A DNA stretch of 64,000 nt from Cyanophora paradoxa CCMP329 (lineage: Eukaryota; Plantae; Glaucophyta). Positions within the stretch are counted from its first letter, which is position 1, and each line of letters begins with the position of its first letter. A program made the position numbers and the translations under genes. The notes below the pieces were generated by a model, which saw nothing but the letters and a program-made list of their open reading frames with translations, searched no databases and was not told the DNA's origin. Location: contig QPMI01000602.1 in assembly GCA_004431415.1 (NCBI GenBank), positions 186,001 through 250,000 of the forward strand, read 5' to 3'. This document shows, piece by piece, positions 32,866 through 58,097 of this stretch.

Positions 32866-33221
32866 CTCCGGGAGCATCCAGCCACACTTCCTGGGTATCC
32901 GGACCCTCCTCCTCCAGGGGGAGCCTCCAGGTCGCACCCTCCTTCGGCTTGCATTCCCCTCCTGCCTTCGGCCATTGTACAGTCAGTCGCCCGCCCGCCT
33001 TCTGTCGAAGGCCCACCCCACCCCCCTCAGCAAGGAAACGACTTTCGAATCCACAATTCGATTTTCTGTACTCTACACTCGAAAGGGATGTAAGCTGCTG
33101 CTGGCATTCACCGGAGGCATCGCAGCATGGGTCGGAGGGGGGGGCGCAGGGTCATTCTGAGAGAGGAAAGGGGCTGGGGCGGGCGTGGGGGTGGGCTGTA
33201 GGGAAGCGCGGCCGCGGCCGC

Positions 33222-36200: not shown

Positions 36201-36695
36201 CGCCAGCAAGGCAAGCATCGCCTTCAGCCCTCCGTCCTTCACTAGGATGGCCTGATTCTCGGCTGCATAGCTTGTCAAGCGCGAACAAACACACGTGCTC
36301 CGTACATGACAATGAACGAACCATTTGTGGCCAGCTGCGCGAAGCAAGCTGCAGTGCTTCGCTGAACCTCAACGTCTGCAGACCCGGCAAGGGCGACCAA
36401 AGTAGGGAGCCCGCCCTCCTTTAGAATCTTCACCCTTGTCGCATCTACGACAACTTCGAACACTTGCGAAAGATGATGGGGCGCGATGGCCACGCACCGT
36501 TCATGGAGCTGAGCTGCAGCAATGCGCGGGCAGACTGCCGCTGCGCATCGGGCGATGAACTCGCCGCTGCCTGAAAGATCTGCTTCAAATCGATTTCACC
36601 CGCTGCGCCGTTCGTTCCGGGCGAGTGAGCAGAAGGAAAGGAGCCAGCACAGCAGCCCGGCAGGCCCAGGAGGACGCACGTTGGGCGGCCGCCAT
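33222..36695 (-). CDS. Armadillo-repeat + TKL (Raf-like) protein kinase, multi-exon
   Basis: Repeated KIxxxGGLxxLxxL ARM units, then GVGGFG, VAIKKL, HRDLKSENLL, DFGLAR, GTPKYMAPE. Confidence 0.9.
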
Positions 36696-40661: not shown

Positions 40662-40948
40662 TCACACATAGTAAAATGCGGAGTTTTAACCCTCGGCTTA
40701 TCTTAATTGATTTTGTTGATATATCTCGTATATTCTATTTCAATCAATCGATAATCTGTGTATATCTTATCGAATATTCAATTATTTCGATTATTTTGTA
40801 TTCTTTTCGATATTTTATCGTAAATCTCTCTTATTTTCCGATTAGTCTTACTGAGTCTATCGATAATCTGTATATATTTCCGAATAATATAACTGAATCT
40901 CAATTAGATCTTGCCTCTGGTTAAAACTCCGCATTTTACTATGTGTGA
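40662..40948. repeat. 287-bp unit bounded by perfect 30-bp inverted repeats at the host/virus junction
   Basis: TCACACATAGTAAAATGCGGAGTTTTAACC (40662-40691) and its exact reverse complement (40919-40948). Confidence 0.9.
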
Positions 40949-41200
40949 TTGGTCTAAAAGTTAATTGATTTAATCGATATTATATTCATGTACTTTCTCG
41001 ATTAAATTTAATTAAATTTAATTCATTTAATCGGAAATATATCGCTAAACTCGATTAAGATCCATAAAAGATTCATTTGTTTAATAAAACAAATCGATCT
41101 CTTATTGAATTCAATCGTAATTATACATGAAACTTATATGATTTGATCATTGTTTTATTGAGTCTAAGGGGGGACCCTTAGGAATTTAATGAATAATTGG

Positions 41201-41290
41201 GTGTCACAGGTGTCACAGGTCCATCCATCGAAAGGGAAAATCACTCTTTATAGGGCTTGAGCTGGGATAAACCTGTGACACCTGTGACAC
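41201..41290. repeat. Inverted iteron cassette, copy 1
   Basis: GTGTCACAGGTGTCACAGGT, 50-bp spacer, ACCTGTGACACCTGTGACAC: a perfect 20-bp inverted repeat built from tandem 9-mers. Confidence 0.85.
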
Positions 41291-42329
41291 ATACCATATT
41301 CAGTAAGGACCTCATATATTGTTAAAATCTCAGTGTTAGTTGGTGTAGTTGATTCAAAAAATGCATTTATACTCTGATTCATTGTTATTTCCTGTGAAAT
41401 TTGAGTCAACTCAACCCACTTAGTCAACCCTTGCATTGAATTCGTAACAAAATCCATATACTATTACTACTTTTACGATTAATATGAGTCAACCTTGAGT
41501 CCACTTAAATATAAATATAATATAATAGGGGGAATGAAGGGGATATGCTACTAAATGCAGTGCTAGATTGATGGGATCATATATGTAATTACGTTTATCA
41601 AAGCAATATAATATAGGTGATTATTCGATATCATAAGTTGATCGAAACGATAAGTATATGGTTATAAATCGCGATTTTTGAGTTATAATCGAATTTAATC
41701 GATTTAATTTTGAATTTCAAAACTCGCTTTAATCGTAATAACGATCTATACACATTGAGATTCGTATATGTGATTGCAAGTTATTGTTATGTAGGATATA
41801 TGTGATTATATTCGACCGTCAGTGCATCGATTTGATAACTTCCTAGTGATCTATATTAAAAACTCACGTTTAATGGATTTTAATCGAATTTAAAATCAAA
41901 ATTCAACATCGGTTTCATTGCGATTTGGAGTCACAGGTATCGAAAATCCTCAATGTGATAGTAGCGCTGTGACCGCCTTAAAATGCTCGATTTTATGACG
42001 TTTGCAGCGCATCGATTTGAGCATGTGGTGTTGAGCTATCGTAGCAAACGTGAATATTGAGTTTCTAGACGGGTACAGCATTAATCTAGAAAAAAACGCG
42101 TTTTTTTTTTACTTTTCAAGTTTCACGGCGAACGAAGTAAAGGTTCCCGGTCGGATTGAACCTCAGCATCTTCAAACGGTTATATCTCATCACCAGATCA
42201 TCAAAACGCAACGTTCTGCATATCGCTGTGAAGCGCTTGATAAGAGCTACAAGACTATGTGTATATCATATGCATATATGTATATCAGTCATACATATAT
42301 TTGGAAAAAACGAGTTTTTGCCTAGCAAA

Positions 42330-43715
42330 CTAGCTAGTTTTGGTCCTTTCTCTTAGTGTTCTTTGAGGTTTAGGGGCTGTATATGACTCCTTAGTAGTCT
42401 GAAAGTCATTATACCATCTCTGGCTATTCACTTCTGAAAGTTTCTGTGTCCCTGCTATAGTGAGCTTTTTGAGTTCCCTATTAACTTTGCCAGCCTTCTC
42501 CTTTCTAGCCTCTATCAAAGGCTTATCTGGGACTTCATTAGCAGCTTCTATGCCTTCTCTCCTTATAGCAGCATCAACCCTGGCTTCCTCCTTGGCTTGC
42601 TCTAAGGCATCCACTGTAGGGGTTTCTAGATATTCAACTGCATTCACAGGCAACAGCTCATGGAAAGCAAACCTGTTTTCTATGATCTCACCAGTGGGAC
42701 TCCTTAGCTTAAACTTAAAGCCTTCCCTACTATCAACAGTGTAAACCATCCTAGACCAATTGTTACCCTGTTTAGCAAAGGGATTTTTCTCAACTTTCAC
42801 TCTAACAAACATGCCAGGCTGCATGGTATCAAGGTAAGCTATTGATTTCTTGAATCTTTCATCTTCTAATCCCACTATATACCTATAATGCTCCTCTGTA
42901 GTTTCGCCTGGCTTCATCTTAGTAGCTGAGTGAACTGTATTATTGTAATTATACTCAATATCACCTAACACATCAAAGAATCTAGCTGTGTTATTAGCTA
43001 TGCAGTAGTTTGTGATCAGTCTCTTAATCTGCTTGTTAAAGGCTTCAATTCGACCTTGGCTTCTATGGTCAGCAGTTCCACTCACTTGGTGTTCTATGAA
43101 TTTACTAGATAAATACTCCTGGAATATTCGATTTTGGAATTCACTCCCAGCATCTGATTGAACTTTTACTATGGGTCTTGCCACTCTCATTTCAAGCTGC
43201 TTAAATGCAGCTAATGTAGTGAGAGCTGATTTATCTCTTATAGGTATGATATACCCAGTTCTCAGTGTTGATTCCATAGCAGTCATAAATGTATCATAGC
43301 CATTGTTTTGTTTCTTATAAGCTGGGAAAAAGAGCAAATCAATCACATAGGTATCAAGGGGTTGCCTTATTGGAACCATGGGATCTCTCTTCCTAGATAT
43401 AGCAGGTGCATTGATCTGAACTACCTCTTGTTTTTTATAGAACTCTTGCAATTGCTTATAGGATTCATCAGGTAACTCAGCCCTCATGGCTTGAAGCCCT
43501 TTATAACCAGTTCTCACATCATAGAATCTCTTGGCAATCTTGCTGGTTTCTTTCACTGCAATTGCAACTGGAATCTCTACTGGGACAAGCTCTTTCATCT
43601 CTGACTTTTTAACAATTCGAGATTCTCCCTTTTCCTCCTTGGGAACTGTGATGGGCAGTAGGTTACCTTGTAGTTGCTCAGTGGTTCTCCTAACTATTCT
43701 TCCAGTTGCTGGCAT
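42330..43715 (-). CDS. Retroviral-type (rve) DDE integrase
   Basis: YVIDLLF (D), VQSDAGSEF (D), QGRIEAFNKQIK (E), YNNTVHSATKMKP; Polinton/mavirus-type. Confidence 0.93.
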   Translation of the reverse strand: MPATGRIVRRTTEQLQGNLLPITVPKEEKGESRIVKKSEMKELVPVEIPVAIAVKETSKIAKRFYDVRTGYKGLQAMRAELPDESYKQLQEFYKKQEVVQINAPAISRKRDPMVPIRQPLDTYVIDLLFFPAYKKQNNGYDTFMTAMESTLRTGYIIPIRDKSALTTLAAFKQLEMRVARPIVKVQSDAGSEFQNRIFQEYLSSKFIEHQVSGTADHRSQGRIEAFNKQIKRLITNYCIANNTARFFDVLGDIEYNYNNTVHSATKMKPGETTEEHYRYIVGLEDERFKKSIAYLDTMQPGMFVRVKVEKNPFAKQGNNWSRMVYTVDSREGFKFKLRSPTGEIIENRFAFHELLPVNAVEYLETPTVDALEQAKEEARVDAAIRREGIEAANEVPDKPLIEARKEKAGKVNRELKKLTIAGTQKLSEVNSQRWYNDFQTTKESYTAPKPQRTLRERTKTS

Positions 43716-43718
43716 CTC

Positions 43719-46700
43719 TTAATTAAAAGGAACAGAATTAATACCATCTGGTAAGATGTATCTCTTTGCATCAAAGCAGTTTAGGGCAACCCTTCTACTT
43801 ACAGTATCTATTATTGTGTGATCTGCCCTTCTCTTCTGCTTTGCAGTCACAGTCTTGCTGATACCTGCAAATAAACACTGCTTAAAATCATTAAATTGGA
43901 GTTCCTCAGTGGAAGTCCCAGAGAGCTTACTTCTCTCAATCTCAGCAGTTCTGAAACTGTAAACTTTTGCTCTCAGACCTACATACTCCAGTATTGCAGA
44001 GCCAGGCATTTCATTTTTGTATTTACCTGGGGTCATTCTGTTAGATCGCCCTAGGTCCAAGGCATAAGATATATTCTCTATATCTTTTTGTAAGGTCTTA
44101 GATTCAATATATAGACAGAAGGAGTCAGTATCATGGAATAGTAACTTTGCTTTTGTCCATTGGGACCTTACAGTATCATAGAAGAACTGGTAATTATGCA
44201 GTTTGGCTGCATCCAAAACATAAGCCCCAATTGCAACAGGCTTATCTGGTTTCACATGCTTTGTGTAAAACTCAAAGGCAACTGCTTTTTCGTTTATGGG
44301 GCTTGTTGATTTCACCAATGGGGAAGCTGCATATTTCATAAATAGTTTCTCACTGTTTGCAATCTTAACCACAGATCTACCTCTACATGATTCAATGCAT
44401 TTCCCATAGATTGAATTATTCATGAGCTTATAGAAATCAGCCTCGAATTTATTCACTGCTTTCCTTCTCATGTCAGTATTCAGCTCAATATAGGGTTTCA
44501 TTACAGGAGCCACAGTAAATGATAGGACCCTGTGAACTTTCTTTAATTTCACCCCTTTGTCCAACAGATATTGCAGAAGAGGCTCAGAAATCACATAGTT
44601 TGCCACAGAACCAAAGGTTGCAGTTAGCTTTGGGGTTTTATCAAGCTCTTCTCCTGAAAGATCTAAAAGGCTCTTTTGATATTGTGATAATTCGGCATAA
44701 TCTATTATTTTCTTGTTAATGATTAGGGGGAAATCACTGTGATCTAGAAACAGCCTAATTGGGTAATCCAGATCAACTTCCAGGAAACTGGATCTGTTAT
44801 CTTGTGGGTTGAATTCGGTCTCCCATCTAAAATCACCAACTGGGATTGGCTGACTCAAACAGTAGCCATACAAGTTGTTAGCATCAAACAGCATAATGTG
44901 GGAGTTTTCACCATCAGCCTCAGCATACCTACAAGGCATTGTTGCAAAGCCACCCCTGATTCCCCTCTCAACAAATTCGTATTGCTCTACATCACTTATA
45001 AGCTCTATTTTTGCCTTGGTGGTCCTTAACATAGAATCCCAAGATAACCCAGGGGCAGATACATAATGAACTGGGTCAAGTCCATATACTGAGTGTGAAA
45101 GCCTTCTAAAAGCCTGGAATTTGTTCATTAACTCATCTACATCAGCAGCCCCAAAGTCCATGAAATTACTTGCATCAATGAACTTGTAAAGACCCCATTG
45201 CAATGAAAGGTATTGATCAAAGTTTTTTGAGAGGATTTCGATTCGTTTTTTATCTCCCAAGCCTGCTATTTTTCTGAAAATGAATGTCCCACAGTCATCC
45301 ATTTGGTCAACAACAACTGCAACTTTGGTTTGCTTTGAGATTCTCCTATGGAGATTGCAGTTTCTGCATGCAGGAGCAATGTAATGACCTGTGTGGTGGT
45401 CATGATCTCTGCATTTAAAGTTTTCCTTGGTGAACCTCTCACTGCAAAGGTAACAGTGTTTGGTAGCTCTGTAAATTGCTTTCTGCTCATCTGTGAGTTC
45501 ATTCATAGGAATATTGGTAAACAGAAAATCGATCAGTTCTCTTGCTTTGGACTCCAAGCATTCAAACAGACCTCCCATTGGATCATGCCCCTCAAATCGA
45601 AAATCTTGAACATCTGCCCCAGTGACTATTCTAATGTTGACTGCTGAGACTTCCCTCTTGGATTTCGATGCATCAATGGGGATGCTTCTATGTGCAATCT
45701 TGCAGTAGACCACAACAGGAAGCCACACAGTTTTCCTGAGGTTTTTCAGTCCAAACTCTATGGTGGTCTCAGGTTTAGGGGTGATTCCCTTTGAGAGTCT
45801 CCAATCAATGCATCTGTTTGAGTCCACATGAGCAGTGAGTTTAGCCTCAGACCTGAATCGAGATAAGCATGTGTCACAGTAGTGTAACTTTTGATCCTTG
45901 GTTTTATCAAGGGCAACTCTTAGAAGTCTTGAGAGTGACATAATAGTAATATAGTGACCATTCCCTTCATCATCATGAATGAGCATGAGATTAATCTTTT
46001 GCTTTCTGCCTGGGTTGCTGGATTGATGCAGTGGATATATAACATCTCCATCCATTCCAAAGATGTTTATGCTAATGCCTGCATTTTGAGCTTCGAATTT
46101 ATCAATGATTTCAGCATCACAAGGAACAGGGAATGGGATATTGTCGAAATTGAGAGCCAAAGGATTGTATGTGGTTGGTGAGTATTTCCATTTGCGATAT
46201 TGTGTAAGCTCACTTCTCTTGTGGGAATTTACATCTTTCCTATGGATCCATGCCAAAATGGCATTTTCAAAGCAAGAATCATCAATATTTCGAATATTCA
46301 CTGTGGCTCTCTTGGCTGCAATTGATTCTGGTGTTTTAACATAGCAACCACCAGTTGGGGCATAACTCATAATAGCTACTCTGAGCATTTCGATTCTCTC
46401 AAGTCGATAGCTATCAACCACATTCATCTGCTCCTGACACATTTGGGCTGCTTTATTCAGCTCAGTTCGAATATTTCTCGATTTAGTTAATACAAAATAA
46501 TCGCTGTAAACGTATTTCGATATCCAAACCTGTGGATTGCTGACTTTAACGAACTTGCAGATAAACGACAAGCGAACTTTGATTGCCCTGAATTGATCCA
46601 GACTATCCCTTAAACGTTTTGGTAGAGAGGTTGCAATTCTATCTAAATATTCAATCACATCTACCACAACTTCCCTTCTGGCTCTGTATGTGAGCCAGCG

Positions 46701-46964
46701 ATATAATTCATTCATGGCTGTGCCATCTTCTGCCTCTGGTTCTATTTGCCTCAGGCGATCGAGTTCATCAAGAGTCTCAACTTTGTCATAGAGGTTATTG
46801 GCTTTTCTGGTTAATTTGGACAAAGTGGGTCTCCCCCTTGAAATAAATCCGATTTCGCGGTCATATTCAGCCTCAGTGATTTCATGGGCTGCATACAGTG
46901 TTCCCAGTAATCCCATGAGTTCCCATTTCTTCTCTCTAATGAGTCTGTTGCTAATTCGGGGCAT
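43719..46964 (-). CDS. Protein-primed family B DNA polymerase (Polinton type)
   Basis: Motifs FDANNLYG, KLMNNSIYGK, HDTDSF, EYVGLRAKVYS; C2H2 finger; endonuclease-VII-like CYLC...RDHDHHTG...CRNCN. Confidence 0.95.
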   Translation of the reverse strand: MPRISNRLIREKKWELMGLLGTLYAAHEITEAEYDREIGFISRGRPTLSKLTRKANNLYDKVETLDELDRLRQIEPEAEDGTAMNELYRWLTYRARREVVVDVIEYLDRIATSLPKRLRDSLDQFRAIKVRLSFICKFVKVSNPQVWISKYVYSDYFVLTKSRNIRTELNKAAQMCQEQMNVVDSYRLERIEMLRVAIMSYAPTGGCYVKTPESIAAKRATVNIRNIDDSCFENAILAWIHRKDVNSHKRSELTQYRKWKYSPTTYNPLALNFDNIPFPVPCDAEIIDKFEAQNAGISINIFGMDGDVIYPLHQSSNPGRKQKINLMLIHDDEGNGHYITIMSLSRLLRVALDKTKDQKLHYCDTCLSRFRSEAKLTAHVDSNRCIDWRLSKGITPKPETTIEFGLKNLRKTVWLPVVVYCKIAHRSIPIDASKSKREVSAVNIRIVTGADVQDFRFEGHDPMGGLFECLESKARELIDFLFTNIPMNELTDEQKAIYRATKHCYLCSERFTKENFKCRDHDHHTGHYIAPACRNCNLHRRISKQTKVAVVVDQMDDCGTFIFRKIAGLGDKKRIEILSKNFDQYLSLQWGLYKFIDASNFMDFGAADVDELMNKFQAFRRLSHSVYGLDPVHYVSAPGLSWDSMLRTTKAKIELISDVEQYEFVERGIRGGFATMPCRYAEADGENSHIMLFDANNLYGYCLSQPIPVGDFRWETEFNPQDNRSSFLEVDLDYPIRLFLDHSDFPLIINKKIIDYAELSQYQKSLLDLSGEELDKTPKLTATFGSVANYVISEPLLQYLLDKGVKLKKVHRVLSFTVAPVMKPYIELNTDMRRKAVNKFEADFYKLMNNSIYGKCIESCRGRSVVKIANSEKLFMKYAASPLVKSTSPINEKAVAFEFYTKHVKPDKPVAIGAYVLDAAKLHNYQFFYDTVRSQWTKAKLLFHDTDSFCLYIESKTLQKDIENISYALDLGRSNRMTPGKYKNEMPGSAILEYVGLRAKVYSFRTAEIERSKLSGTSTEELQFNDFKQCLFAGISKTVTAKQKRRADHTIIDTVSRRVALNCFDAKRYILPDGINSVPFN

Positions 46965-47031
46965 TGTTCCTAACTTGTTCCTAATAAAAGGAGAGGTTTT
47001 AAATGGGGTATTCTGAACACAAAATTTGATG

Positions 47032-47070
47032 AAAACTACTTAAAGAAATATCTTCTATATATATAAAAAG
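47032..47070 (+). promoter_or_regulatory. Conserved viral upstream motif (putative promoter)
   Basis: AAAACTACTTAAAGAAATATCTTCTATATATATAAAA, nearly identical to 48323-48360; shorter variants at ~47870 and ~50890, each upstream of an ATG. Confidence 0.7.
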
Positions 47071-47073
47071 ACA

Positions 47074-47856
47074 ATGGCAGAGAAGAGATCTTATTGCCTG
47101 GAAATATTGAAAGCTGAACTTTTGAGAATATGTGGATCTGATAATTTCAATAATTATGTTGCTCTGGGTAGTAACAGAAAGCTGCTCCCCCTTTGGGCAA
47201 AACTTGCCAAGTATGGATTAAGTGACACAGACCTGCCCCCAGAGTCTAAGAATTGCGCTTGCAATCATTATATTCAAGAGCAGTGCTATATTTTGCATGT
47301 GGATAAAAAGATTGTGGTCATAGTTGGCAACTGCTGCATTAAACGATTTATGCCAAAGGGTGCCAGGGGTCAAGATATATGCGAAAAATGTGGAGATCGG
47401 CATAAAAACCGAAAAGATAATTTCTGCAATAAGTGCAGGATTATCAGAAAGCAAGAGGAAGAAGAAAGACAAAAGCAGCTTGAAATAGAGAAAAGAGAGA
47501 CAAGGCAGAGAGAATATGAAGAAGAAAGGGCAAGAAAGAAACATGCAGTGAACCTTTTCCTGATTTGGTGCAACCAGTTTATACCAAAAATGGATAATCT
47601 TCGCAGAGATGATATAGAGAGGTTCAGAGAGGGCAGATCTGCATTGATTGAAATGTATGCAGAACTCAGTACTACAAATACATTGGTTGCTGGGTTTCAG
47701 GTGCCATATCTTAAAAAGGATATTGCAAAAGGACTAGATTGCAGATGGAATAAGGACAAGAAAACATGGGAGACCTTGGAAATCGAACCATTTGTAGCAT
47801 TGCTAGGTAAGCATTTCAAACTTATGTATATTGAGCGATTTGGACAAAGAGGTTAG
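47074..47856 (+). CDS. Viral Cys-rich protein with C-terminal DUF5710-like motif
   Basis: CACNHYIQEQCYI...VGNCC, CEKC...CNKC, a charged coiled coil, then VPYLKKDIAKGLDCRWNKDKKTW. Confidence 0.75.
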   Translation: MAEKRSYCLEILKAELLRICGSDNFNNYVALGSNRKLLPLWAKLAKYGLSDTDLPPESKNCACNHYIQEQCYILHVDKKIVVIVGNCCIKRFMPKGARGQDICEKCGDRHKNRKDNFCNKCRIIRKQEEEERQKQLEIEKRETRQREYEEERARKKHAVNLFLIWCNQFIPKMDNLRRDDIERFREGRSALIEMYAELSTTNTLVAGFQVPYLKKDIAKGLDCRWNKDKKTWETLEIEPFVALLGKHFKLMYIERFGQRG

Positions 47857-47912
47857 AGAACAAAAAATGATTTAAAGAATTCTCTATATATATTAAGAGA
47901 GAAAGAGGAAAA

Positions 47913-48167
47913 ATGCCACTCAGTGAAGCGCAGAAGAGAGCTATGAAAAGATATCAGCAAACTGAAAAAGGTAAGGCTCAAATCAAAAAGTTTAACGAAA
48001 AAATAGCCACACAGCTTAGAGATCTATATAACACTGATGACACCTATAGAGCCATGAAAATAGCAAGTTCATGTCAGCGAAAGTATGCAGCCAATGCAGT
48101 CTGCTTTGTCAAGTATTTGTATGATGTCCCTTACTCAAATCGAGGGAGAAAATCGAAACATGTCTAA
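47913..48167 (+). CDS. Small basic viral protein
   Basis: MPLSEAQKRAMKRYQQTEKGK; preceded by the TTAAAG motif. Confidence 0.65.
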   Translation: MPLSEAQKRAMKRYQQTEKGKAQIKKFNEKIATQLRDLYNTDDTYRAMKIASSCQRKYAANAVCFVKYLYDVPYSNRGRKSKHV

Positions 48168-48322
48168 ATTATTTTTCCCAGCATATTACTAGGCTGGGAT
48201 ATGCTGTTTATTCGCTGAAATACTACTTTATCGTTTTTGTATCTGAACCACTCGATATATGATGTGGATAAATTTCGTAGGGATACTTTCTCGATTTCCA
48301 ACAAAAAATGATTGGGGGACCC

Positions 48323-48360
48323 AAAACTACTTAAAGAAAAATCTTCTATATATATAAAAG
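48323..48360 (+). promoter_or_regulatory. Second near-identical copy of the viral upstream motif, flanked by an inverted repeat
   Basis: ATTGGGGGACCC - motif - GGGACCCCCAAT, directly upstream of the primase-helicase. Confidence 0.7.
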
Positions 48361-48379
48361 GGACCCCCAATCGCTGAAA

Positions 48380-50706
48380 ATGAACGCCAAACAGACCAAG
48401 TTAATTAAATCGCTCGCTAACTGGCTTCGTTCTGATGAGGAACTGTCCAAAAACATGATTATCCCTGTGAAACCTGACAGCAAAGACCCTGTTTTCAAGC
48501 ATAAGGGAGGTGCTTGGTCCTGGGAAAAGTATGAGGAAGCGCTGGCAACTAATCAGTATGTATCTTGGGGCATTCTGCTCTCAGAAAACATGATGGTTAT
48601 TGACTTTGATGATGAGGAGAACTTCGAGAAATTCCGGGATATGTTTCCTGATGACTTTGATGCCAATCAACCCATGGCAAAAACTAAAAAAGGCTATCAT
48701 GTCTACTTTAAACGACCTGAGGAGTTCAATAAACTCAAAATTACCGATACGGCTCCTGGCTTTAAAGGCTTTGAGAAGGTTGACCTGAAAACAATCACTG
48801 GAACTGGAACTTCTGGATTAATTAATGTTTGTCCCAGTGTCAACAAGACCTGGGTAATTGCTCCATGGGATGATACCTGTGATTTCAATGAGCCTACTGA
48901 TGAGTTTAAAAAGTGGATTGCAGAGAACTATATCTATAAGAGTGAGTATACTGCTAGTGCTAGCTCAAATGATGAACTGGAAAAGAGTATTCTTAAAGAG
49001 CTGGTGGATATGGGCTTTATGCATCCCAATATAATCTCTAAAACTGAACTGGGCTTTAACTTTGATGCTGCCAATAAGGGACTCAATTGCCCATGCTGCA
49101 ATGGGTCACATGAATCGAATAACTGGTATGTTATGAAAGCCAAAGGGGAAGATAAAAAGTATATTGTGTCCAGCTACAGTGGCAATTGCAAAAAACGATT
49201 TATCTTCATTGGAATGCAATCTGATATCTTCAATCTCATTGATAAATCCGCTGGCTCTGGAGGCGCTCATTATGATGTCAGTCTTGTGTGCAAAGAGGTC
49301 CTACAACACACTTGGAGATACTCCAAAAAGTCATGGTTCAAACTCAATACTGATACTGGGATTTGGGAGCATGATGACACAAACCAAAAGATTTACCTAG
49401 ATATTAGTTGCCTTGTTGTCCCTCAATACCTTGGCAGGGCTGTGCATTATAGCCAAAGAGCTTTGAAGGATGAAGAGAATAGAACAGCTTTCGAAGAGAA
49501 ATCGAAAACATTAATTTCTATTGCCAAAAATCTTAAACAATCAGGATATCGCAAATCCCTTCTGACTGATCTGCTCCCTCTGCTGAATGATGATGAGTTC
49601 TATGAAAAGATTGATACAGTTCCATATGTAATTGGATTCGATAATGGTGTATTTGATCTGACAACTATGACTTTCAGAAAGGGTAAACTGGAAGATATGG
49701 TGAGCAAGAGTGTGGGTTATGATTTTACTGAGAATGTAGACCCCAAGAAAGTGGAGCATCTCAATCAGATTTATAGAGAGATTGTAGATGATCCAGCAGA
49801 GCGAAACTATCTTCTGGCATCTATTGCAATTGCTTTGAGTGGATCAACAAAATCACAGAAGTTCTATATGTGGACTGGTGCTGGTGCTAATGGTAAATCA
49901 CTTGTTCAGGAATACTGCAAACAGATATCTGGGGCTTATTACAGCCCTCTCGAAATATCCTATTGGACCAAACCTAAGAAGAACTCATCAGATGCTACCC
50001 CTGAACTTGCCAAACTCCTGGGAAAGCGACTTGTATTCAGTAATGAGGCTGAAGATGGTGATAAACTGCAAATTTCCAAAATTAAGGAGGTCACAGGTGG
50101 AAATGAAATGACTGTGAGAGCCTTGTTCAAAGACCCAGTAATCCTCACTCCAATGTTCCAGGTTTACATTACAACTAATGACAATTTGACTATAAATAAA
50201 CCAGACTTTGCAATTCAAAGAAGGCTTTCATACCAGAGATTCAATAATATATTCAGAGAGAAGCCTGAAGCTGGTCAAAAGAAAGCTGACCCAACTCTGT
50301 TCACACTTCTTCACAATGATGATGAGTATAAGATGGCTCACATGAAGATATTACTGGATATGTGGAAGAACAAAGAAGTTGAAGAGATCTTAAGAAATCC
50401 CCTCAATCGATTATTGAGCAGGGAATAAACTTTATAGCTGAAAATGACAAGATTGGTGAATGGCTTAGGGATAATTTCGAAGTTACCCATAATGCAAACG
50501 ACTTTGTTTCGAGTGATACCATTTACAAATCATACAGAAGTGTCGATGATAAAGTTGAATGTGTTTCTGTGATGAAGAGAGTAAGGGAAATCTTCAATGT
50601 GAAATCAGAGGTTAAACGAATTCAGGGAACCAGAGCAAGGGGCTACATTGGACTTCGAAAGATAACAAGGGTTCAAGAAGACAATGGAGAGGATGTTGAA
50701 TATTAA
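48380..50706 (+). CDS. Prim-Pol primase fused to D5-like SF3 helicase; frameshift at ~50400
   Basis: Prim-Pol motifs VIDFD and KTKKGYHVYF; CPCC...H; D5_N IGFDNGVFDL; Walker A GAGANGKS. The C-terminus continues in the -1 frame (PQSIIEQGINFIAENDKIGEWL...RGYIGLR...*) to 50706. Confidence 0.9.
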
Positions 50707-50766
50707 ACAAAACGATTTATGATTGAAATGTATATGTAATTTTTATAGCCTTACTGGAAATGGTGT

Positions 50767-50859
50767 TGTTCACAGGTGTCACAGGTCCATCCCATCTAGG
50801 GGGCTATAAAACGAAAAATGACCAGGGGACGATAAAAACCTGTGAACACCTGTGACACC
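50767..50859. repeat. Inverted iteron cassette, copy 2 (candidate replication origin)
   Basis: TGTTCACAGGTGTCACAGGT, 51-bp spacer, ACCTGTGAACACCTGTGACACC; 60 bp downstream of the helicase stop. Confidence 0.85.
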
Positions 50860-50926
50860 TATCGAAAAAGACCAAAATTTGACAAGAATACTTAAAGCTT
50901 ACTTGATTGTGTATAGTGAAGACAAA

Positions 50927-51148
50927 ATGGCAAAGACTCTTGATGAGATGACCATGACTGAGTTAGATAAATGCATAAAGCATGGAGATATAGGGGCATA
51001 TATCGAAATGTCACAGAGATTGATAGGTTACAATATGTATGCAGCTAAACCAAAGAGAAATAGATCAGTAAACATTCACATTACTGTTTCAGTATCTGAG
51101 AATGTAAACAAAAAACTACAAAAGCAAATTTACAAAGCTTATCTGTGA
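50927..51148 (+). CDS. Small hypothetical viral protein
   Basis: ATG (MAKTLDEM) lies 35 nt after TTAAAG; the track's GTG start falls inside the iteron. Confidence 0.5.
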   Translation: MAKTLDEMTMTELDKCIKHGDIGAYIEMSQRLIGYNMYAAKPKRNRSVNIHITVSVSENVNKKLQKQIYKAYL

Positions 51149-51241
51149 CTTGCAATTGATTGCAAGTATAAAGCCAATTCCTTTGTATATATTTTTATAG
51201 CTGCCTCAGTGGCATACTGAGACCGCTTTTTCTCGATTATC

Positions 51242-51487
51242 TTATAGACCTGGGGGTCCATTGCTACTATCAGTAGGCAAATAATATTTAATCGGTCTCC
51301 CTCTGGGTCTCTGCTCCTCTTTTTGGGCTTTTCTGCGATAATAGGATGCCAGGGCTTGCTGCTTTTTATACTCTCTATATGCTGGGTCCTCTCTATATCG
51401 TTTCTGCATTGCTAGTATGTGTCTGATAGAACCCTCAGTAACAGGTTCATCACTGGTAAACTCGATTAAACTAATAGTGTCCTCCAT
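51242..51487 (-). CDS. Small basic viral protein
   Basis: RYREDPAYREYKKQQALASYYRRK...RPRGRP (AT-hook-like); overlaps its neighbour. Confidence 0.6.
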   Translation of the reverse strand: MEDTISLIEFTSDEPVTEGSIRHILAMQKRYREDPAYREYKKQQALASYYRRKAQKEEQRPRGRPIKYYLPTDSSNGPPGL

Positions 51488-51743
51488 TTATATTCCCAGA
51501 GAAAACGTTTTCTGCTGGCAGAGAACTTCTCCTTGGATACTCCTGTTGCTCATATGTATACTCTGTGGGGTCTGCTGGCATTGACTCCACTGAAGCTGTT
51601 GACCTCCTTCTTTCTCTTGCCTCAGATACATTATCCTCAGTATCTGACATCTCAAACTCTATTGTTGTGTCACAGCATCCACTGTGGCAATTGCTTACCA
51701 CATGCAGACTGAGCATCTCAATAAACTTTCGTATTATATCCAT
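51471..51743 (-). CDS. Small hypothetical viral protein
   Basis: ATG-started ORF packed in the minus-strand gene run; contains SNCHSGCC. Confidence 0.55.
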   Translation of the reverse strand: MDIIRKFIEMLSLHVVSNCHSGCCDTTIEFEMSDTEDNVSEARERRRSTASVESMPADPTEYTYEQQEYPRRSSLPAENVFSGNINGGHY

Positions 51744-51765
51744 GTCTCTAATAAAACAGAGAAAA

Positions 51766-52500
51766 TTAAAGCCAAACTCGTCTTTTATATACTGTGGGAG
51801 CTACTCCCTTTTCTACTTCAGCTTTAGTGGCACCAGGTTCAATGGTTCCCTTTTGGGTCTTTGTTTTCATTTCATCTACTGCTTGCTCATCGATTTGGGT
51901 CTCTTTCTTAGCAATAAACTGTTTATCTGGGACACCAGTAATGCCCATTTTATAAACTTCCTTTCGAAGCATCTCCTTTAGCTTAGCCCTCTCTTTCTTC
52001 TCAGTAACATACTGCTCCAAGGCACTGGATTTGGCTTCCAAGTCTTTGAGTTTAGCAGTCATCTCATCCCATTGAGCTTTGGGAATTCGATGAATATTTT
52101 GAGTGGGAGCAGTCTTATATGTGACTTCACCAGCCATAGACTGAATTACCTTGTCTGATTCCTTACTAAGACCTTCACCTTTGCGAGCCAGTGAAAGATC
52201 TTGCAAGCCTAGACCTTTATCATCAGCAGCACCAATAATTCGCCTGGCACCCTCAGCAACAGCTTTCATTTTTGAGGCTTCTGGTGAGATGTTGAGTTGG
52301 TCACTGGTTGAAGCCTGTGGGGCTTTGTCATCGACTGATTCCTCATAGGCAGCATTAAGAGGGTCTTCTTCTTGTTGTGAGGGCTTCACCTCATTCATAC
52401 CATTGAACTTCAGTGGTTCAGTGTTAATGGATCCATTGTTTCCACCACCTGAATAGCCAACAGCCCCAGCTGGGATCCCTATTTTTCGTTTGGGAGGCAT
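51766..52500 (-). CDS. Hypothetical viral protein with coiled coil (possible core/structural protein)
   Basis: 244-aa ORF starting MPPKRK, next to the packaging ATPase. Confidence 0.7.
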   Translation of the reverse strand: MPPKRKIGIPAGAVGYSGGGNNGSINTEPLKFNGMNEVKPSQQEEDPLNAAYEESVDDKAPQASTSDQLNISPEASKMKAVAEGARRIIGAADDKGLGLQDLSLARKGEGLSKESDKVIQSMAGEVTYKTAPTQNIHRIPKAQWDEMTAKLKDLEAKSSALEQYVTEKKERAKLKEMLRKEVYKMGITGVPDKQFIAKKETQIDEQAVDEMKTKTQKGTIEPGATKAEVEKGVAPTVYKRRVWL

Positions 52501-52528
52501 TGTATCTTTATTAGAATGAGAGATAATT

Positions 52529-53311
52529 TTATAAACCGCGTTTATATCTCATCAATTTATTGCTATGGATTTGGCTTTTCACTTCTTTAGGGGCTTCCTC
52601 TTTCTCTGGTGGTTTCAGTTCATCTTCTTTCTTTTTTGGCTTTCTGTGGAAGCGAGGAAATGGGAAATCTTTCACAAGCTCAGCTTTATCTACATAGTAT
52701 TTAACTGAGTAGTTTGCAGAGGACCAAATAATATACTGATAGGAGTGAACATACTCTTCAAACATCTTGTAAAAATCCTCTTTATTTCGCATTATATTGT
52801 ATTCTTCCTCTATGGCTTCCAGTTCTTTGCGATTTGCAGCACTTAAAAACATAGCATAGTCCGAATTAACTCGAATTGTTGAAGAAACCTTACGCAGTTT
52901 CTGAGTTATGCAAAAAATGCTTATTTGGGAATGGCGCCCACGCGAATACAGAGATCCTATTATTTTATCCCTGGTCAAATCGACTATTTCATTATCGATT
53001 AAATCATCTAAAACCACACATAACTGATTAACAGGTTCTCCCTTTTCTATTTTCTCTTGCCTCTCATCTAGCAATTTAGCAATGTAAGGGGCATCCCATT
53101 TTCCCAGTTGCAGTGTTGCCACTTTATCCCAGAAATGATTGAAGCTGGTTCCACTCACAACTAATACAACATCAATCTTTTTGGCATCATGCAGTTGCTT
53201 CAACCAATACTTTACAGCTTCTGATTTACCAGTGGCAGACTTGCCAATTGCTAATACACGAAATGGTGGTTCTATCATTTCACCAGCCACAAATTCATCC
53301 AAATCATTCAT
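52529..53311 (-). CDS. A32/FtsK-like genome packaging ATPase
   Basis: Walker A GKSATGKS, Walker B LCVVLDD, RGRHSQISIFCITQ, IRVNSDY. Confidence 0.93.
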   Translation of the reverse strand: MNDLDEFVAGEMIEPPFRVLAIGKSATGKSEAVKYWLKQLHDAKKIDVVLVVSGTSFNHFWDKVATLQLGKWDAPYIAKLLDERQEKIEKGEPVNQLCVVLDDLIDNEIVDLTRDKIIGSLYSRGRHSQISIFCITQKLRKVSSTIRVNSDYAMFLSAANRKELEAIEEEYNIMRNKEDFYKMFEEYVHSYQYIIWSSANYSVKYYVDKAELVKDFPFPRFHRKPKKKEDELKPPEKEEAPKEVKSQIHSNKLMRYKRGL

Positions 53312-53376
53312 TGTTGTATATCTTTCTAAATAAATACAGATAAAAATAATGCAGAGAGACTGAATATCGTAACAAT

Positions 53377-54747
53377 CTATAAATTAATTCTTCGGAGACC
53401 ATCCTTGTCCAAAATTATATAGCTATGCATGAGAGCGCGAACATTGACATCGATTACCTTATCTGAAGGCATGTAGAGGGTGAGGAAGGAAGAAGAGGAA
53501 TTTGTTAAATCGACATAACCAGACTGGGCAATATTTCGAATTGCCTTCTCTCCATCAATGCAGAAACTTAAACCTGAAAGGACATAGCGATCAGCAACCT
53601 TATCCATGTTAGAGCATTTGAAGGCATCAGCAATTAGCTCAGCACCTTTGAGTAGGGAAATTGGCTCAGTGGCATAAAGTCGCTGTCCATTAATTTCAAC
53701 AGTGAAAGTAATATCTTTGGAGTTGGCATAGGTCTTAAGAACACTGTGGGAGCCAGTGGATTTATCAACAGTTGCATTATCACGAACTGAAACAAGCAGA
53801 GCATAAACAAGACCTGAGATTTGAGAGAGGTTAATTCGATTGGGTTGGGCATTGCCCTTGGCAGGGAAAGCACTAGCATCTACAAATCCAATATCAAGGG
53901 AGGGAATAGCCATGCCAGTAGTCTTTACTTTTTCAATTACAGTAGCGAAAAGCTCATCAGAAACATTAATAGCATGCATGTAAAGGCGAGGAGAAGTAAT
54001 AGAAATGACAGGGGTTGTTGCACCAAGAGTAAAGTCTGTGATGTTTTGACCAACATTTGCCAGAACAGTTTCAGCAGGGGCAGTTCCAAGACCATCATCT
54101 TTTGAATAATCTACATCAGCTGCTGCAACAGTAAGACCACGACCACCATAGGAAGTTTCAACATAACCCTTTCCAGCATCCTTAAACCAAACAGTAACAA
54201 CCATTTCACCAGATAAAGCACCAAGGGGAAGGTAGTGATTTAGCCAAGGCACAGGGATTTCAACAAAGAATGAGCCACCAAGGCGGTTGGTTCCATGAGC
54301 AGGGATGCCATGAACCATGCCCATTGATTGCTTCTTTTTAGCTAGTTGATCCTCCGAATAATAGACCAGGGGGAAATGAGCAAGGAAATCAGAGGGAATG
54401 TGGTAGGTGTAAGATCCATAGGTAATTTCGAGTCGCTGAACTAAAGCACCAACTGGGCGAGTGTATCCATTGCGAACTAGGTCAGTATCACCAGCAAATG
54501 TGATGGCTGGAAGGTCGAAAGCAAGTTCGAGTTTTCCACAGAAATTGTAGCGAGGTAGCTTGAAGGAAATGCGATTTCCAACATTATTCTCAAAAGTATT
54601 GCTGGGATTCACAACAACTAGAACTGGCTTAGACTTGGATTCGAGACCAAGCATTAGGGAGTTATCCAGGAAAAAGGCTTTCGCCTCCTCTGGGGTTGTT
54701 AGGGCTTCTTTCAGCGAAAGTCTTTGAAGAGTGGAAGTGATATCCAT
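53377..54747 (-). CDS. Major capsid protein, probable double jelly-roll
   Basis: ~456-aa beta-rich ORF between the ATPase and minor capsid genes; GNRISFKLPR...LELAFDLP...LVQRLEITYG and ITFTVEINGQ resemble DJR strands. Likely start MDITST. Confidence 0.8.
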   Translation of the reverse strand: MDITSTLQRLSLKEALTTPEEAKAFFLDNSLMLGLESKSKPVLVVVNPSNTFENNVGNRISFKLPRYNFCGKLELAFDLPAITFAGDTDLVRNGYTRPVGALVQRLEITYGSYTYHIPSDFLAHFPLVYYSEDQLAKKKQSMGMVHGIPAHGTNRLGGSFFVEIPVPWLNHYLPLGALSGEMVVTVWFKDAGKGYVETSYGGRGLTVAAADVDYSKDDGLGTAPAETVLANVGQNITDFTLGATTPVISITSPRLYMHAINVSDELFATVIEKVKTTGMAIPSLDIGFVDASAFPAKGNAQPNRINLSQISGLVYALLVSVRDNATVDKSTGSHSVLKTYANSKDITFTVEINGQRLYATEPISLLKGAELIADAFKCSNMDKVADRYVLSGLSFCIDGEKAIRNIAQSGYVDLTNSSSSFLTLYMPSDKVIDVNVRALMHSYIILDKDGLRRINL

Positions 54748-54800
54748 TATATTCTCTTTTATTATACTGCAACATAAAAAATCTACCAATGATCCTTAAT

Positions 54801-55832
54801 TTATGCGAAGCTTGTAATAACTGGATAGGAAGGGTGAAGCTGCGACATTCTCATCTTAAAGTATTCATAAACTGGGTCTCCTGCTGGCTCATCACCATAG
54901 CGAATTTCAAAGGTCAGATGAACAGGTTGACCCTCAAAATCAATTGGTTCATTTACAGCATTAACAATATCAACCGAGAAAGTGGATAATCCAACCTTCT
55001 TATTATAATATTTGTAAAGTGGGTGAGCTTCTGTTGAATTGTAAACAACATGCTCACCATAGTCTTTATCAGGGACCACTATTTTGTGAAAGTAACCAGT
55101 CAGAAGACCATCCCCACATTGAACCAGATCACCCAGCTCCTTTACTCTCACAAACAAAACACTGTCCCTGGTCTTCTCAGGCTCAAAAGAAGATATAATG
55201 CCATTCACTCGACCATCAGTAAAGATTCCATCAGTGAGAGCATCATAAACTTGGGATTTGATTGGGGAATTCCCATATCTTCCAGGATCAAGACCAAGCA
55301 GTCTAGCTGAACTCAATAGCTTTTGGATTGTTTGTTGGCTTGGGTTTACAGCAAGTGAGAAAGCCAGGTAAAAAGGCACTGCCGACTGGAATATAATTCG
55401 TTTCAGTGACTCATCCCATTTGCAGCGAATGGATGGTTGGGGAGTTCTGCCAATGAATTTTGAGTTGATTACATTCACCAGCTGTTGGTGGCTTTGGATG
55501 GGGGTCTCGCGATTTACCATGAATTGTTTCCATTGTTCAAAATCAGCAGCTGGGCGAGTTGTTGGAATTCCTGAGCTTCCAGCTCCTGGAGTTTGTTCAG
55601 AATAATAAATACTAAATGTGTTATCAACTGTTACATCTCCTGCTTTGGTTTCACCACTCACCATAGGGATGCTGTTATAAAATTCGGCTGAGACCAGTCT
55701 CACAGCCCTCACATTCTCATAAGTACTGGGGAGTCTAGCCACAAAGCTTGAAGTGGGACCATCACCAGAGATTGTATTAAATGAGCTAACCTCGATGTAA
55801 TCCACAGGCATTCTTCTTTTATCTATATTCAT
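54801..55832 (-). CDS. Minor capsid (penton-like single jelly-roll) protein 1
   Basis: SFVARLPSTYENVRAVRLVSAEFYNS ... LFVRVKEL ... LSTFSVDIVNAVNEPIDFEGQPVHLTFEI. Confidence 0.8.
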   Translation of the reverse strand: MNIDKRRMPVDYIEVSSFNTISGDGPTSSFVARLPSTYENVRAVRLVSAEFYNSIPMVSGETKAGDVTVDNTFSIYYSEQTPGAGSSGIPTTRPAADFEQWKQFMVNRETPIQSHQQLVNVINSKFIGRTPQPSIRCKWDESLKRIIFQSAVPFYLAFSLAVNPSQQTIQKLLSSARLLGLDPGRYGNSPIKSQVYDALTDGIFTDGRVNGIISSFEPEKTRDSVLFVRVKELGDLVQCGDGLLTGYFHKIVVPDKDYGEHVVYNSTEAHPLYKYYNKKVGLSTFSVDIVNAVNEPIDFEGQPVHLTFEIRYGDEPAGDPVYEYFKMRMSQLHPSYPVITSFA

Positions 55833-55840
55833 ATATTAAA

Positions 55841-56773
55841 ATGAACCGGCTCGTTAATATTGATAGCAGGGATAGAAGCCAAGGACAAAATGAAAACTCT
55901 TACAGGGTCACCCTCACAACTCCAGTAGAGAGACCAAGGGAATGCAGGGTTCTATATGCAGAGATTCCAAACAGCATCTATAACAGTGTTGGAACTGATC
56001 ATCTAACAGTTCAGTTTAATTACCAAGATGGTTCATATAACCAAGTGATCACACAACAAGTGTATCCCCTTCCCAGTGGCTACATCAATCAGGGTCATTT
56101 TGGGGTAACACACCCTTATAATTACGGGCTGAACTATTCAAGCTTCCAAACAATTGCAGGCAAAACAGTAGCTTTTGAGTTCAAGATATTCTATAACCCA
56201 ACTACCTATAAAGTGGAGTTTTACAGTAACCATGAGTTTCGTTTTATTGCAAGCAACCAGAGAATAGGGAAGCTTTTGGGTGTAAGCTCTACTGAATATA
56301 CCAATGGGTATTATAGCACTCCTCCTGTTGGTGGATCTCCCTATCGACCTGAGAACCTTTTAAAGTATGATGGCAAACCTATTACACCTGATCACCCAGC
56401 ATGGGGAATCACCTTCTCAGGACCCAGACTCTCCTCTAAGCCCTTGCAATATTATTTTGACAGCAGGAAGATGTCTGATATGAATGCTGAGCAGTATCTG
56501 TACATGCATATTAAAGAGCTGTCCCCCTTTGCCAGCAGACACAATATAATTCCAAAATCGCAACCACAAAACCAGGGAGCTATCCTTAGATTGCAATTGA
56601 GTAAGGATATAGGGGGCTATGTTTACCATAGTGGTGAGCATGCAGAATTTATTCAAATCAATGACAGAAACCTGGTGATAAGGGAACTCACAGTTGAGTT
56701 TAAAGATTACTTTGGTGAACTGATTGATATGAATGGAATCGATAATTCGTTTCAGTTGGAGTTTATCGAATAA
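55841..56773 (+). CDS. Minor capsid (penton-like single jelly-roll) protein 2
   Basis: VNIDSRDR ... AEIPNSIYN ... YLYMHIKEL ... LTVEFKDYFGELIDMNGIDNSFQLEF. Confidence 0.85.
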   Translation: MNRLVNIDSRDRSQGQNENSYRVTLTTPVERPRECRVLYAEIPNSIYNSVGTDHLTVQFNYQDGSYNQVITQQVYPLPSGYINQGHFGVTHPYNYGLNYSSFQTIAGKTVAFEFKIFYNPTTYKVEFYSNHEFRFIASNQRIGKLLGVSSTEYTNGYYSTPPVGGSPYRPENLLKYDGKPITPDHPAWGITFSGPRLSSKPLQYYFDSRKMSDMNAEQYLYMHIKELSPFASRHNIIPKSQPQNQGAILRLQLSKDIGGYVYHSGEHAEFIQINDRNLVIRELTVEFKDYFGELIDMNGIDNSFQLEFIE

Positions 56774-58097
56774 AGGCACCTGTAAAGTCCACTCTCATTG
56801 TGGGAGCATTCACATACACAAGGGGATAAATGCGAATATATTTAATTCTGAGAGAAAAACCTATGTAAAAAGCATCCTTGATGCTGAGAGGGAATCCACT
56901 CAATAAAGCCACATCACCTGAGTTGTGAGCATTGTTAATGTTCTCACAGACATACATTTTGTTTTGCCCATCTGATCGAATAAAAGACCAGTTGATCCCA
57001 TCAGTGGATGTTGCCACATTGAAAGTCTTAATAAAAGCATTGGTGTCACCTGAGCCATAGGCAATCACAGAGGAGAGTTCAAAAGTGTATGGGAAAGCAA
57101 CTTGAAGGTATTCAGTGGGGGTTTCCCATATCTGCTCAGGAGCATAGGCTCCAGCTTCCCAGCCAAATGCTGAAGGTCTAGCCATGAAAGGCTCTTTACC
57201 AGTCACAGAGGATGAGGCAGTGAAGGCATCATCTGCAAGCTGATACCAATTAGCATCCAAAGGTGGTGATGTAGTGAGAGTGGATGAGATGTAAGCCTTT
57301 GTAGGGTTCTTTAATTCATAGTTTGCTACTAGAATGCTGCAAAGCTTATTAATCATATCATTGTTTGCTGCTATGTATGTTTCTGTGAAAGAAAGCATAT
57401 CTGGGATTTTAGAAGTGTCATCCAGGGAGCTTACTATGTGATTCGGAAGAGGGACTGATAGCCTATAGTATCTCCCATAATCCTGATCATAGTTGTAGGG
57501 TAACAACTCCTCCATTTTATCAAGGGCAGAAAGCTCACTTGCAGCCATGAGCATGTTAATCAATGGGCTTCCATCTGTTGAGGCAATCCATGAGAGAATG
57601 CCCCAGCTGTTCACAGTCTCATAAGCATAACCCACATAGTCAGACTCTAAATGTGGGTCCACCTCTCCACAAGAGATGCTTATTACTATAATATCATCAT
57701 CATCACTGTAAATCTTCTTTGCATGGCTGTAACCACACACACTGGGATTATTGTTTCCCGAAATGGCACCATCAATGAGACAGACATATACTCCCCGATT
57801 GAAATCAACAATGCTTACAGGAGAGAAATATGTAGGAGCAGCAGAAGTAGCCCTAGCAGCAATCTTACAAGGCATAAAGTTGTAATTGTTATCATTTGTG
57901 ATAAATATTGGTTTCATATTCTGAGTATCAAAGGATGTAATCACAATGTCCTTTAGGGAATCTTGTATTAGTGATTCACCAGTAACTGAATTGATTGCAG
58001 TCTCCAAGGGTCCCACATCATACTTTGTATTAAAAAGGGCATTTTCGATTATATTTCGAGGATTTGCGAAAATCAAGGGCAGTTGAGTTAGGTAAAT
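56763..58097 (-). pseudogene. Patatin-like phospholipase fused to F5/8 type C (discoidin) domain; 5' part displaced by the insertion
   Basis: ATSAAPTYF and IDGA patatin motifs; discoidin EYLQV...STDGINW...YIRIYP...MRVDF. No ATG, DGGG or GxSxG motif before the sequence turns GC-rich. Confidence 0.85.

Follow-up and report, generated by a model that had tools for sequence, protein, structure and literature searches.

The 64,000-nucleotide stretch of the Cyanophora paradoxa CCMP329 genome analysed here (contig QPMI01000602.1, positions 186,001 to 250,000; hereafter the window) contains an endogenous polinton-like virus (PLV) with two replication modules. One is a family B DNA polymerase of the protein-primed type (pPolB; 43719-46964, - strand) whose proofreading exonuclease appears to have been lost. 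The other, transcribed divergently, is a fusion of a Prim-Pol primase, a Zn-like segment, a D5/superfamily 3 (SF3) helicase and a C-terminal domain (48380-50706, + strand), and is followed by an origin-like palindrome. The reading that we tentatively favour is a single replisome, in which the primase-helicase would provide origin loading and priming, and the proofreading-less pPolB would carry out elongation. Interest in the element centres on its combination, in many copies, of a polinton-type pPolB whose exonuclease is dead and an adjacent, intact primase-helicase that has an iteron-type origin; the co-occurrence of the two genes is not in itself new.

A polinton-type polymerase without proofreading

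The first-pass annotation had placed pPolB and the divergent primase-helicase gene in one small element, and Pfam matches and structural models confirm this arrangement, with two small + strand open reading frames (ORFs) lying between the genes. Its label of protein-primed polymerase stands as far as the polymerase motifs, the terminal-protein fold and the OTU domain are concerned, but it hides the loss of the exonuclease. The 1081-residue protein comprises a terminal-protein fold (residues ~75-202), a vOTU domain (~210-345), a Zn finger, a dead exonuclease (~411-612) and the polymerase. Pfam detects DNA_pol_B_2 above its cut-off (E 1e-13) and an Endonuclease_7 (EndoVII) insert in the exonuclease region. 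The AlphaFold2 model (pLDDT 88) has phi29 polymerase as its best solved match (Z 20.4, rmsd 3.2, 481 aligned residues). For the TPR1 and TPR2 subdomains expected of this polymerase type, the evidence is the alignment of the model as a whole with residues 5-575 of phi29. The polymerase has kept motifs A, B, C and KxY intact.

Relatives of pPolB were surveyed in 111 loci, namely 31 from IMG/VR (L001-L031) and the best 80 of 556 from metagenomes; 36 of the 111 are at least 10 kb long, many are partial, and identities to pPolB are 26-39%. For the exonuclease, the comparison set consisted of 143 proteins (120 database homologues and 23 from IMG/VR). The Asp and Glu of ExoI, the Asp of ExoII and the Tyr of ExoIII are present in 143/143 of these, and the Asn of ExoII in 142/143. 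All five have been lost from pPolB, in which the ExoIII Asp is the only exonuclease column still matched. About 100 residues have been deleted from this domain, with 201 of 310 exonuclease columns filled, compared with 279-308 in the 23 IMG/VR relatives. The degenerate region lies at 45135-45710 (- strand), with the ExoI site near 45710, the ExoII site near 45308 and the deletion junction near 45160, and the junction is spanned without a gap by a contig from another run (X19 record 2, 45048-45215). A deletion of this type is absent from the 80 metagenome loci, at least five of which have substitutions in exonuclease motifs. Judging from these alignments, the proofreading site of pPolB is predicted to be destroyed.

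A fold search with pPolB matched adintovirus polymerase at E 5e-54 and mavirus at 2e-12, the latter falling far below the adintovirus and bidnavirus polymerases. The protein is 30-39% identical to exonuclease-intact polinton-type enzymes, and in a polymerase-domain tree (FastTree, 41 sequences, mavirus not included) it nests among exonuclease-intact relatives, on a branch of 1.43 against a median of 0.49. Its polymerase domain is divergent, with 116 of 198 conserved columns retained, the joint lowest of 24. No close relative was found among 7,995 candidates, the best being 39% identical, nor in a locus search that returned 4 loci, and a PDB sequence search gave no significant match. By these comparisons, pPolB is of the EndoVII-containing polinton/adintovirus type and outside the mavirus clade.

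An intact primase-helicase

The in-window primase-helicase ORF (48380-50428, + strand, 682 residues) contains Prim-Pol, D5_N and DUF5906 domains, all above the Pfam cut-off. An alignment of 44 sequences shows conservation of primase residues D75, D77, H107 and D135 and of the helicase Walker A motif, E556 and N600, and the model matches C962R of African swine fever virus (ASFV) and poxvirus D5/E5. A Cys/His cluster at residues ~237-270 is shared with the closest relative, P0133; the Zn-like segment is modelled with pLDDT below 50. As a single query, the protein returned 0 loci.

The gene had been annotated as ending at 50706, and the helicase C-terminus does run to that position, in another frame. 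The helicase is extended by a frame of 107 codons whose stop lies at 50706, and this piece matches the C-termini of full-length relatives and of PHROG primases. This C-terminal domain, for which there is no Pfam winged-helix match, is likely to be a winged helix. The frame break, near 50398, is found in this assembly only. Public contigs read in frame there at all local depth in X2 (4 contigs), X3 (1) and X4 (5), as does one contig in X19, while in X1 three contigs, representing 2774/3668 of the depth, read in frame past it. The continuous protein would have 775 residues, the same length as P0133 (40% identical). Because nearly all public contigs read in frame and P0133 has this length, the break is most likely an assembly slip.

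Selection on both genes

Decay of one gene in all copies had been raised earlier as an outcome that would undo the idea of two working modules, and the comparison of copies gives no sign of it in either gene. Among public contigs, 75 distinct differences were listed (with over 1,500 further rows beyond them); 7 non-coding ones were dropped and 68 were scored, a small sample of linked sites that yields synonymous counts and not dN/dS. Six of the 8 listed differences in pPolB are synonymous (p 0.007, fourfold transition weight), as are 12 of 18 in the primase-helicase (p 4e-4), 11 of 13 in the 260-residue ORF between them and 6 of 8 in the neighbouring 84-residue ORF. None of the 68 creates a stop. 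Two runs presumed to be of RNA yielded 6 and 3 low-depth contigs, which do not bear on expression. The pattern points to purifying selection on pPolB and on the primase-helicase, neither of which would then be decaying.

It could still be argued that one gene is a relic, or that the arrangement is chimeric in this assembly. The helicase is broken in the window, the pPolB branch is long, the right end of the element is truncated and, among the contigs listed, none spans both genes. However, the break is missing from nearly all contigs, all 30 bins of the region are covered in 4/4 runs, the differences are mostly synonymous and without stops, and even in the exonuclease remnant three of the four listed copy differences are synonymous. 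We consider decay or artefact very improbable.

Origin-like palindromes

Two palindromes resemble replication origins. Palindrome 2 (50770-50855), located 64 nt after the helicase stop, consists of two TCACAGG repeats, an A-rich spacer and two inverted copies; palindrome 1 (41204-41287), near the left end of the element, has two TCACAGG repeats, a spacer and two inverted repeats. The palindrome 16-mer is matched three times in the window and not once in 100 shuffles, and the palindromes enclose the integrase, pPolB and primase-helicase together. They may instead bound a nested sub-element (41200-50860) as its terminal repeats (62 nt, 77% complementary), although the repeated DNA reaches ~540 nt further left.

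In Staphylococcus aureus pathogenicity islands (SaPIs), the origin lies directly after the primase-SF3 helicase gene and has at least two opposed iterons on each side of an AT-rich spacer, which are bound by the C-terminal winged helix of the protein (PMC9371898; this and the other sources given by accession or DOI are cited for the parts of their text that were available). Palindrome 2 has the same layout, with opposed iterons around an A/T-rich spacer right after the helicase gene. For PLVs, it has been proposed that primase-helicases use inverted (terminal) repeats as origins (PMC11296320). By analogy, the palindrome beside the helicase is compatible with initiation by the primase-helicase. 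We found no SaPI-style layout with such a pPolB in the literature searched on eukaryotic viruses of the polinton/PLV group.

In IMG/VR, 71 stretches hold the 16-mer and 14 of these have an SF3-type helicase in the flank, counts that come without a baseline from unrelated 16-mers. Within the 14, the 16-mer is placed 11-320 nt after the helicase stop in ten cases (four of them profile seeds, six not), 622 nt after it in one, and 84-555 nt upstream in three. These placements suggest that the 16-mer is a widespread origin motif for the VapE-like/SF3 helicase class. Iteron-like repeats after D5 genes were seen in 0/80 loci, mostly of giant viruses, and the palindrome pattern in 0/111 pPolB-relative loci. 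The 16-mer stands just after VapE-like/SF3 helicase genes in the unrelated IMG/VR contigs L042, L054, L057, L062, L063, L065, L070, L080, L083 and L093.

Initiation of replication

A key question related to mechanism is whether initiation is still primed by protein. The N-terminal terminal-protein fold, of PRD1-like (little-finger/PAD-like) type, is recognised in residues 75-202 of the pPolB model, which match Y-family little fingers (Z 8.3-9.3, rmsd 2.5-2.8; best Z 9.3, rmsd 2.5, 106 aligned residues). The OTU fold is also recovered (Z 6.3-7.3; best Z 7.3, rmsd 3.0, 92 aligned), the Cys and His of the vOTU protease are present, and 29 of 36 conserved OTU/Zn-finger positions are kept, the same as in relatives. 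In the terminal proteins described in PMC11071308, the linking Ser or Tyr lies between alpha2 and beta4, and a neighbouring Gly or Pro is called general. In pPolB, S185 is situated in the expected loop, one position off the column that holds Ser or Thr in 139/143 homologues, and the loop is ~4 residues shorter, without a nearby Gly or Pro. The altered loop is compatible with a transition away from protein priming.

One possible scenario resembles mavirus: initiation would be protein-primed at the ends, the SF3 helicase would only unwind for pPolB, the palindromes would be helicase loading sites and the primase would have a minor role. The retention of both folds, the ordinary conservation of the OTU/Zn-finger region and the Ser in the expected loop are in keeping with it, and there is precedent in mavirus itself (PMC11071308, PMC13215967). 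It is harder to reconcile with the intact catalytic residues of the primase, with the internal position of palindrome 2 (~10 kb in from the left end, with 7 kb or more remaining to the right end), or with a linking loop that is shortened, has its Ser out of register and lacks the nearby Gly or Pro. We judge this scenario rather unlikely.

The first-pass annotation had proposed either two replication modes or a transitional state in which the primase-helicase is taking over initiation, a proposal that is supported in part. The palindrome and the altered loop fit primase initiation or a transition, whereas the terminal-protein fold and OTU domain that have been kept speak against a takeover; in addition, members of the mavirus group routinely encode an SF3 helicase separately from pPolB, and two-replicase elements have already been reported. 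The sequence is compatible with two modes as well as with a takeover; a third possibility, a single cooperative replisome, accounts better for the loss of the exonuclease. A more far-reaching possibility, which we hold to be unlikely as it stands, is that the element is a living intermediate in which a small double jelly-roll virus is moving from protein priming to initiation by an origin and a primase. In that case a pPolB without proofreading, and in the course of losing its linking residue, would extend the primers of a D5-like primase-helicase that loads itself at SaPI-style iterons.

One replisome or two replicons

Under the single-replisome reading, the inverted-repeat palindromes would serve as loading sites for the primase-helicase, its C-terminal domain presumably binding the iterons, and the enzyme would unwind and prime. 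The primers would be handed over to pPolB, which would extend them without proofreading, and the terminal protein and OTU protease might still prime or finish the linear ends. This reading draws support from the survey, because none of the 111 loci of exonuclease-intact relatives showed a helicase of the D5/VapE type. Mavirus and the PLV fusions of pPolB with a superfamily 1 (SF1) helicase both combine a gained helicase with a lost exonuclease (PMC11071308). The present element would be a further independent case of that pairing, with the exonuclease scaffold partly kept and a primase attached.

Several points weigh against a single replisome, beginning with the small sample of copy differences described above. 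We infer the cooperation of pPolB and the primase-helicase from sequence. The pairing of exonuclease loss and helicase gain is not obligatory, as an SF1 helicase fused to an exonuclease-intact pPolB exists (PMC12721341). Prim-Pol domains can polymerise alone, and fusions of an archaeo-eukaryotic primase with an SF3 helicase (AEP-SF3) are the sole replicase in many PLVs (10.64898/2026.06.19.733378, PMC12220804, 10.64898/2026.10.13.758929). An SF3 gene was not seen in 57 of the 71 motif-bearing IMG/VR stretches. Contig depth (a measure that is not a copy number) falls below that of pPolB at 47040-51105, and two primase variants occur at 49356-49693, with 3 and 33 differences, along with a loose contig end at 48803; some copies may lack or replace the primase cassette. 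Finally, a TTAAAGAA...CTATATAT motif is found upstream of all three + strand cassette genes (47040, 47872 and 48331), whereas pPolB and a 90-residue ORF carry TTTTATTAG upstream, without the cassette motif. Because the upstream motif is common to the + strand genes and absent from pPolB, those three genes may form a separately regulated cassette.

The upstream motif, the lower depth and the diverged variants would all suit a mosaic of two independent replicons. Here the acquired primase-helicase and its origin would be self-sufficient, pPolB, the terminal protein and the integrase would serve a linear or integrating cycle, and replicase turnover would be under way. Elements with a second replicase class, and internal repeats bracketing a replication module, are on record (10.64898/2026.10.13.758929). 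However, the palindromes enclose the integrase and pPolB along with the primase-helicase and not the cassette alone; the modules are alike in composition (third-position GC of 0.32-0.41, and CpG depletion), which is compatible with long co-residence; and the mosaic leaves unexplained why proofreading was lost in this pPolB alone. We regard it as somewhat unlikely.

Occurrence of the pairing

The first-pass annotation had called for a survey of co-occurrence, and the combination proves not to be routine among reachable relatives (0/111 pPolB-relative loci). Profiles for D5/VapE-type helicases gave no match in the 31 IMG/VR and 80 metagenome loci, and when 52 large ORFs of the 31 IMG/VR loci were scanned with Pfam, no primase or SF1/SF3 helicase was detected. 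These loci represent distant relatives, the true sister clade being unsampled. Conversely, a pPolB was found in 0/80 D5-relative loci, which were the top 80 out of 249 and came largely from giant-virus contigs.

In earlier work, the combination of pPolB and primase-helicase seems not to be common (PMC3671162), and the two modules are mostly alternatives (10.64898/2026.06.19.733378, PMC12220804, PMC10120064, PMC4642659). The name of one example contig in 10.64898/2026.10.13.758929 begins with QPMI01, a prefix linked to Cyanophora paradoxa in PMC8502044, and a relative of the present family may be among the examples of that study. Co-occurrence is thus rare but known in print. In the open text that the literature search covered, no paper dealt with a polinton-type pPolB that combines a dead exonuclease with an AEP-SF3 partner, or with PLV origins made of iterons.

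Some of the surveyed loci have features of their own. L018, L025 and L029 carry virophage-type capsids together with a polinton-type, exonuclease-intact pPolB, a combination that is reportedly similar to that of rumen virophages. The pPolB ORF of L025 (4475-10000) is 1842 residues long, ~550 above the length of its relatives, and has a C-terminal extension. In L024, a pPolB-bearing viral contig, Pfam weakly relates an ORF at 6207-7595 to phospholipase A2-like and ADP-ribosyltransferase domains.

The element and its setting

The element spans 17.4 kb (~40662-58097), as delimited by GC content, contig depth and the ends of flank contigs. GC is ~40% across the island and 60-78% in the flanking host DNA, and contig depth in four public runs is in the thousands over the island and ~30-95 over the left flank. 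The low-depth flank contigs (X2-X4) end at 40690-40691, which places the left end near 40662. Beyond 58097, other copies carry on with different sequence in public contigs; from this and the island depth, the family has multiple copies, and the copy in the window is truncated. The right end is interrupted by a GC-rich repeated element (58098-64000) with 36-nt tandem repeats and long ORFs at 58837-61188 and 60798-63770. It is likely a retrotransposon, and a Pfam scan of its ORFs gave no informative match. At the left end, a repeat search revealed a 287-nt segment (40662-40948) with 49-nt inverted arms that folds back at -49 kcal/mol and may represent either a hairpin at the terminus or a small insertion. 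No terminal inverted repeats or target-site duplication were seen between the two element ends, the right end being missing.

The element has the pPolB and rve integrase that characterise Polintons/Mavericks. The integrase (42330-43715, - strand, 461 residues) lies directly downstream of pPolB; its Pfam rve match is below the cut-off (E 2.6e-4), and it matches integrases in the relatives' loci at E down to 1e-38. Between the two replication genes, on the + strand, are a Cys-rich ORF of 260 residues (47074-47856), which is likely a replication accessory and has a C-terminal DUF5710 below the Pfam cut-off (E 1.9e-4; Atlas 0.87, a lead only), and a basic ORF of 84 residues (47913-48167) from the ORF list. 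To their right, an A32-like packaging ATPase (52529-53311, - strand; Pfam Pox_A32, E 4e-10) is followed by the likely major capsid protein (53377-54747, - strand, 456 residues), two likely minor capsid genes (54801-55832, - strand; 55841-56773, + strand), so labelled from position, size and one weak match, and a gene with an F5/8 domain (56763-57917, - strand, 384 residues), identified from the ORF list and Pfam. No Ulp1-type maturation protease was matched by Pfam among the 13 ORFs scanned in this truncated element.

The capsid assignment comes from a weak Atlas match: the features have a similarity of 0.98 to clusters in which Capsid_N/Capsid_NCLDV occurs on 12-83% of members, with a recognition of 1785, hence the designation weak. 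The sole homologue retrieved for it, at 58% identity, is a EukProt protein of Cyanophora paradoxa, which makes an alga of that kind the likely host; IMG/VR gave no relative and the PDB no sequence match. Pfam gave no DJR-like_dom match at E 0.1, the polinton-type signature, although the capsids of four relatives match this domain; nor is there a Sputnik_MCP match of virophage type in the element, whereas three relatives' capsids do match. Against a mixed 10-sequence capsid alignment, the hhalign probability was 0.7%.

Two further observations concern the surroundings. The coding DNA of the element (42330-58097) is strongly CpG-depleted (observed/expected 0.2-0.35 by module), a depletion shared neither by the host flank nor by the non-coding DNA at the left end of the element. 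In the host DNA, a gene at 33073-36300 (- strand) has a protein kinase domain and repeated exons.

Relation to known systems and significance

Among known systems, the mavirus-type virophages and pMVRE group 1 are alike in having an rve integrase beside a pPolB without a working exonuclease and a separate SF3 helicase (PMC11071308, PMC13215967), SF3 helicases being frequent in mavirus-related group 1 (PMC13215967). Unlike them, the present element has an EndoVII-containing pPolB with most of the exonuclease scaffold left, a helicase with an intact Prim-Pol and a capsid that is not of virophage type. The polintons, adintoviruses and MELD viruses of the IMG/VR loci (L001-L031) have the same layout of terminal protein, vOTU, Zn finger, exonuclease and polymerase, a similar size and, in several loci, pPolB followed by integrase. 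They differ in keeping all exonuclease motifs and in being without a D5-type helicase in the DNA fetched, and the capsid here matched none of theirs.

The multi-replicase polisuviruses (10.64898/2026.10.13.758929) share pPolB, a DDE integrase, an AEP replicase and internal repeats around the replication module. In the available text of that paper, the word exonuclease has 0 occurrences, and the repeats are taken as signs of mobility and not as iteron origins. The pri-rep-ori arrangement of SaPI PriRep5 (PMC9371898) likewise has a fused primase-SF3 helicase with a C-terminal domain, followed by two opposed short-repeat pairs around an A/T-rich spacer. The SaPI, however, is a bacterial satellite that uses the host polymerase and for which binding has been shown, whereas here binding is inferred and a second palindrome is present close to one end of the element. 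PLV AEP-S3H replicases, the D5 proteins of nucleocytoplasmic large DNA viruses (NCLDV) and ASFV C962R resemble the primase-helicase in domain order and fold; these proteins normally occur instead of a pPolB and not beside one.

Finally, we note that replicase turnover in polintons, PLVs and virophages has been inferred mostly from end states, whereas the family described here holds both systems intact. Polintons and giant viruses are usually connected by postulating the conversion of a protein-primed polymerase to primase use. With many diverged copies in one alga that is likely culturable, such a conversion becomes directly testable, as do two further ideas: that exonuclease loss and helicase gain offset each other (PMC11071308), and that the AEP-SF3 proteins of these viruses use defined repeat origins, for which terminal repeats have been proposed (PMC11296320).

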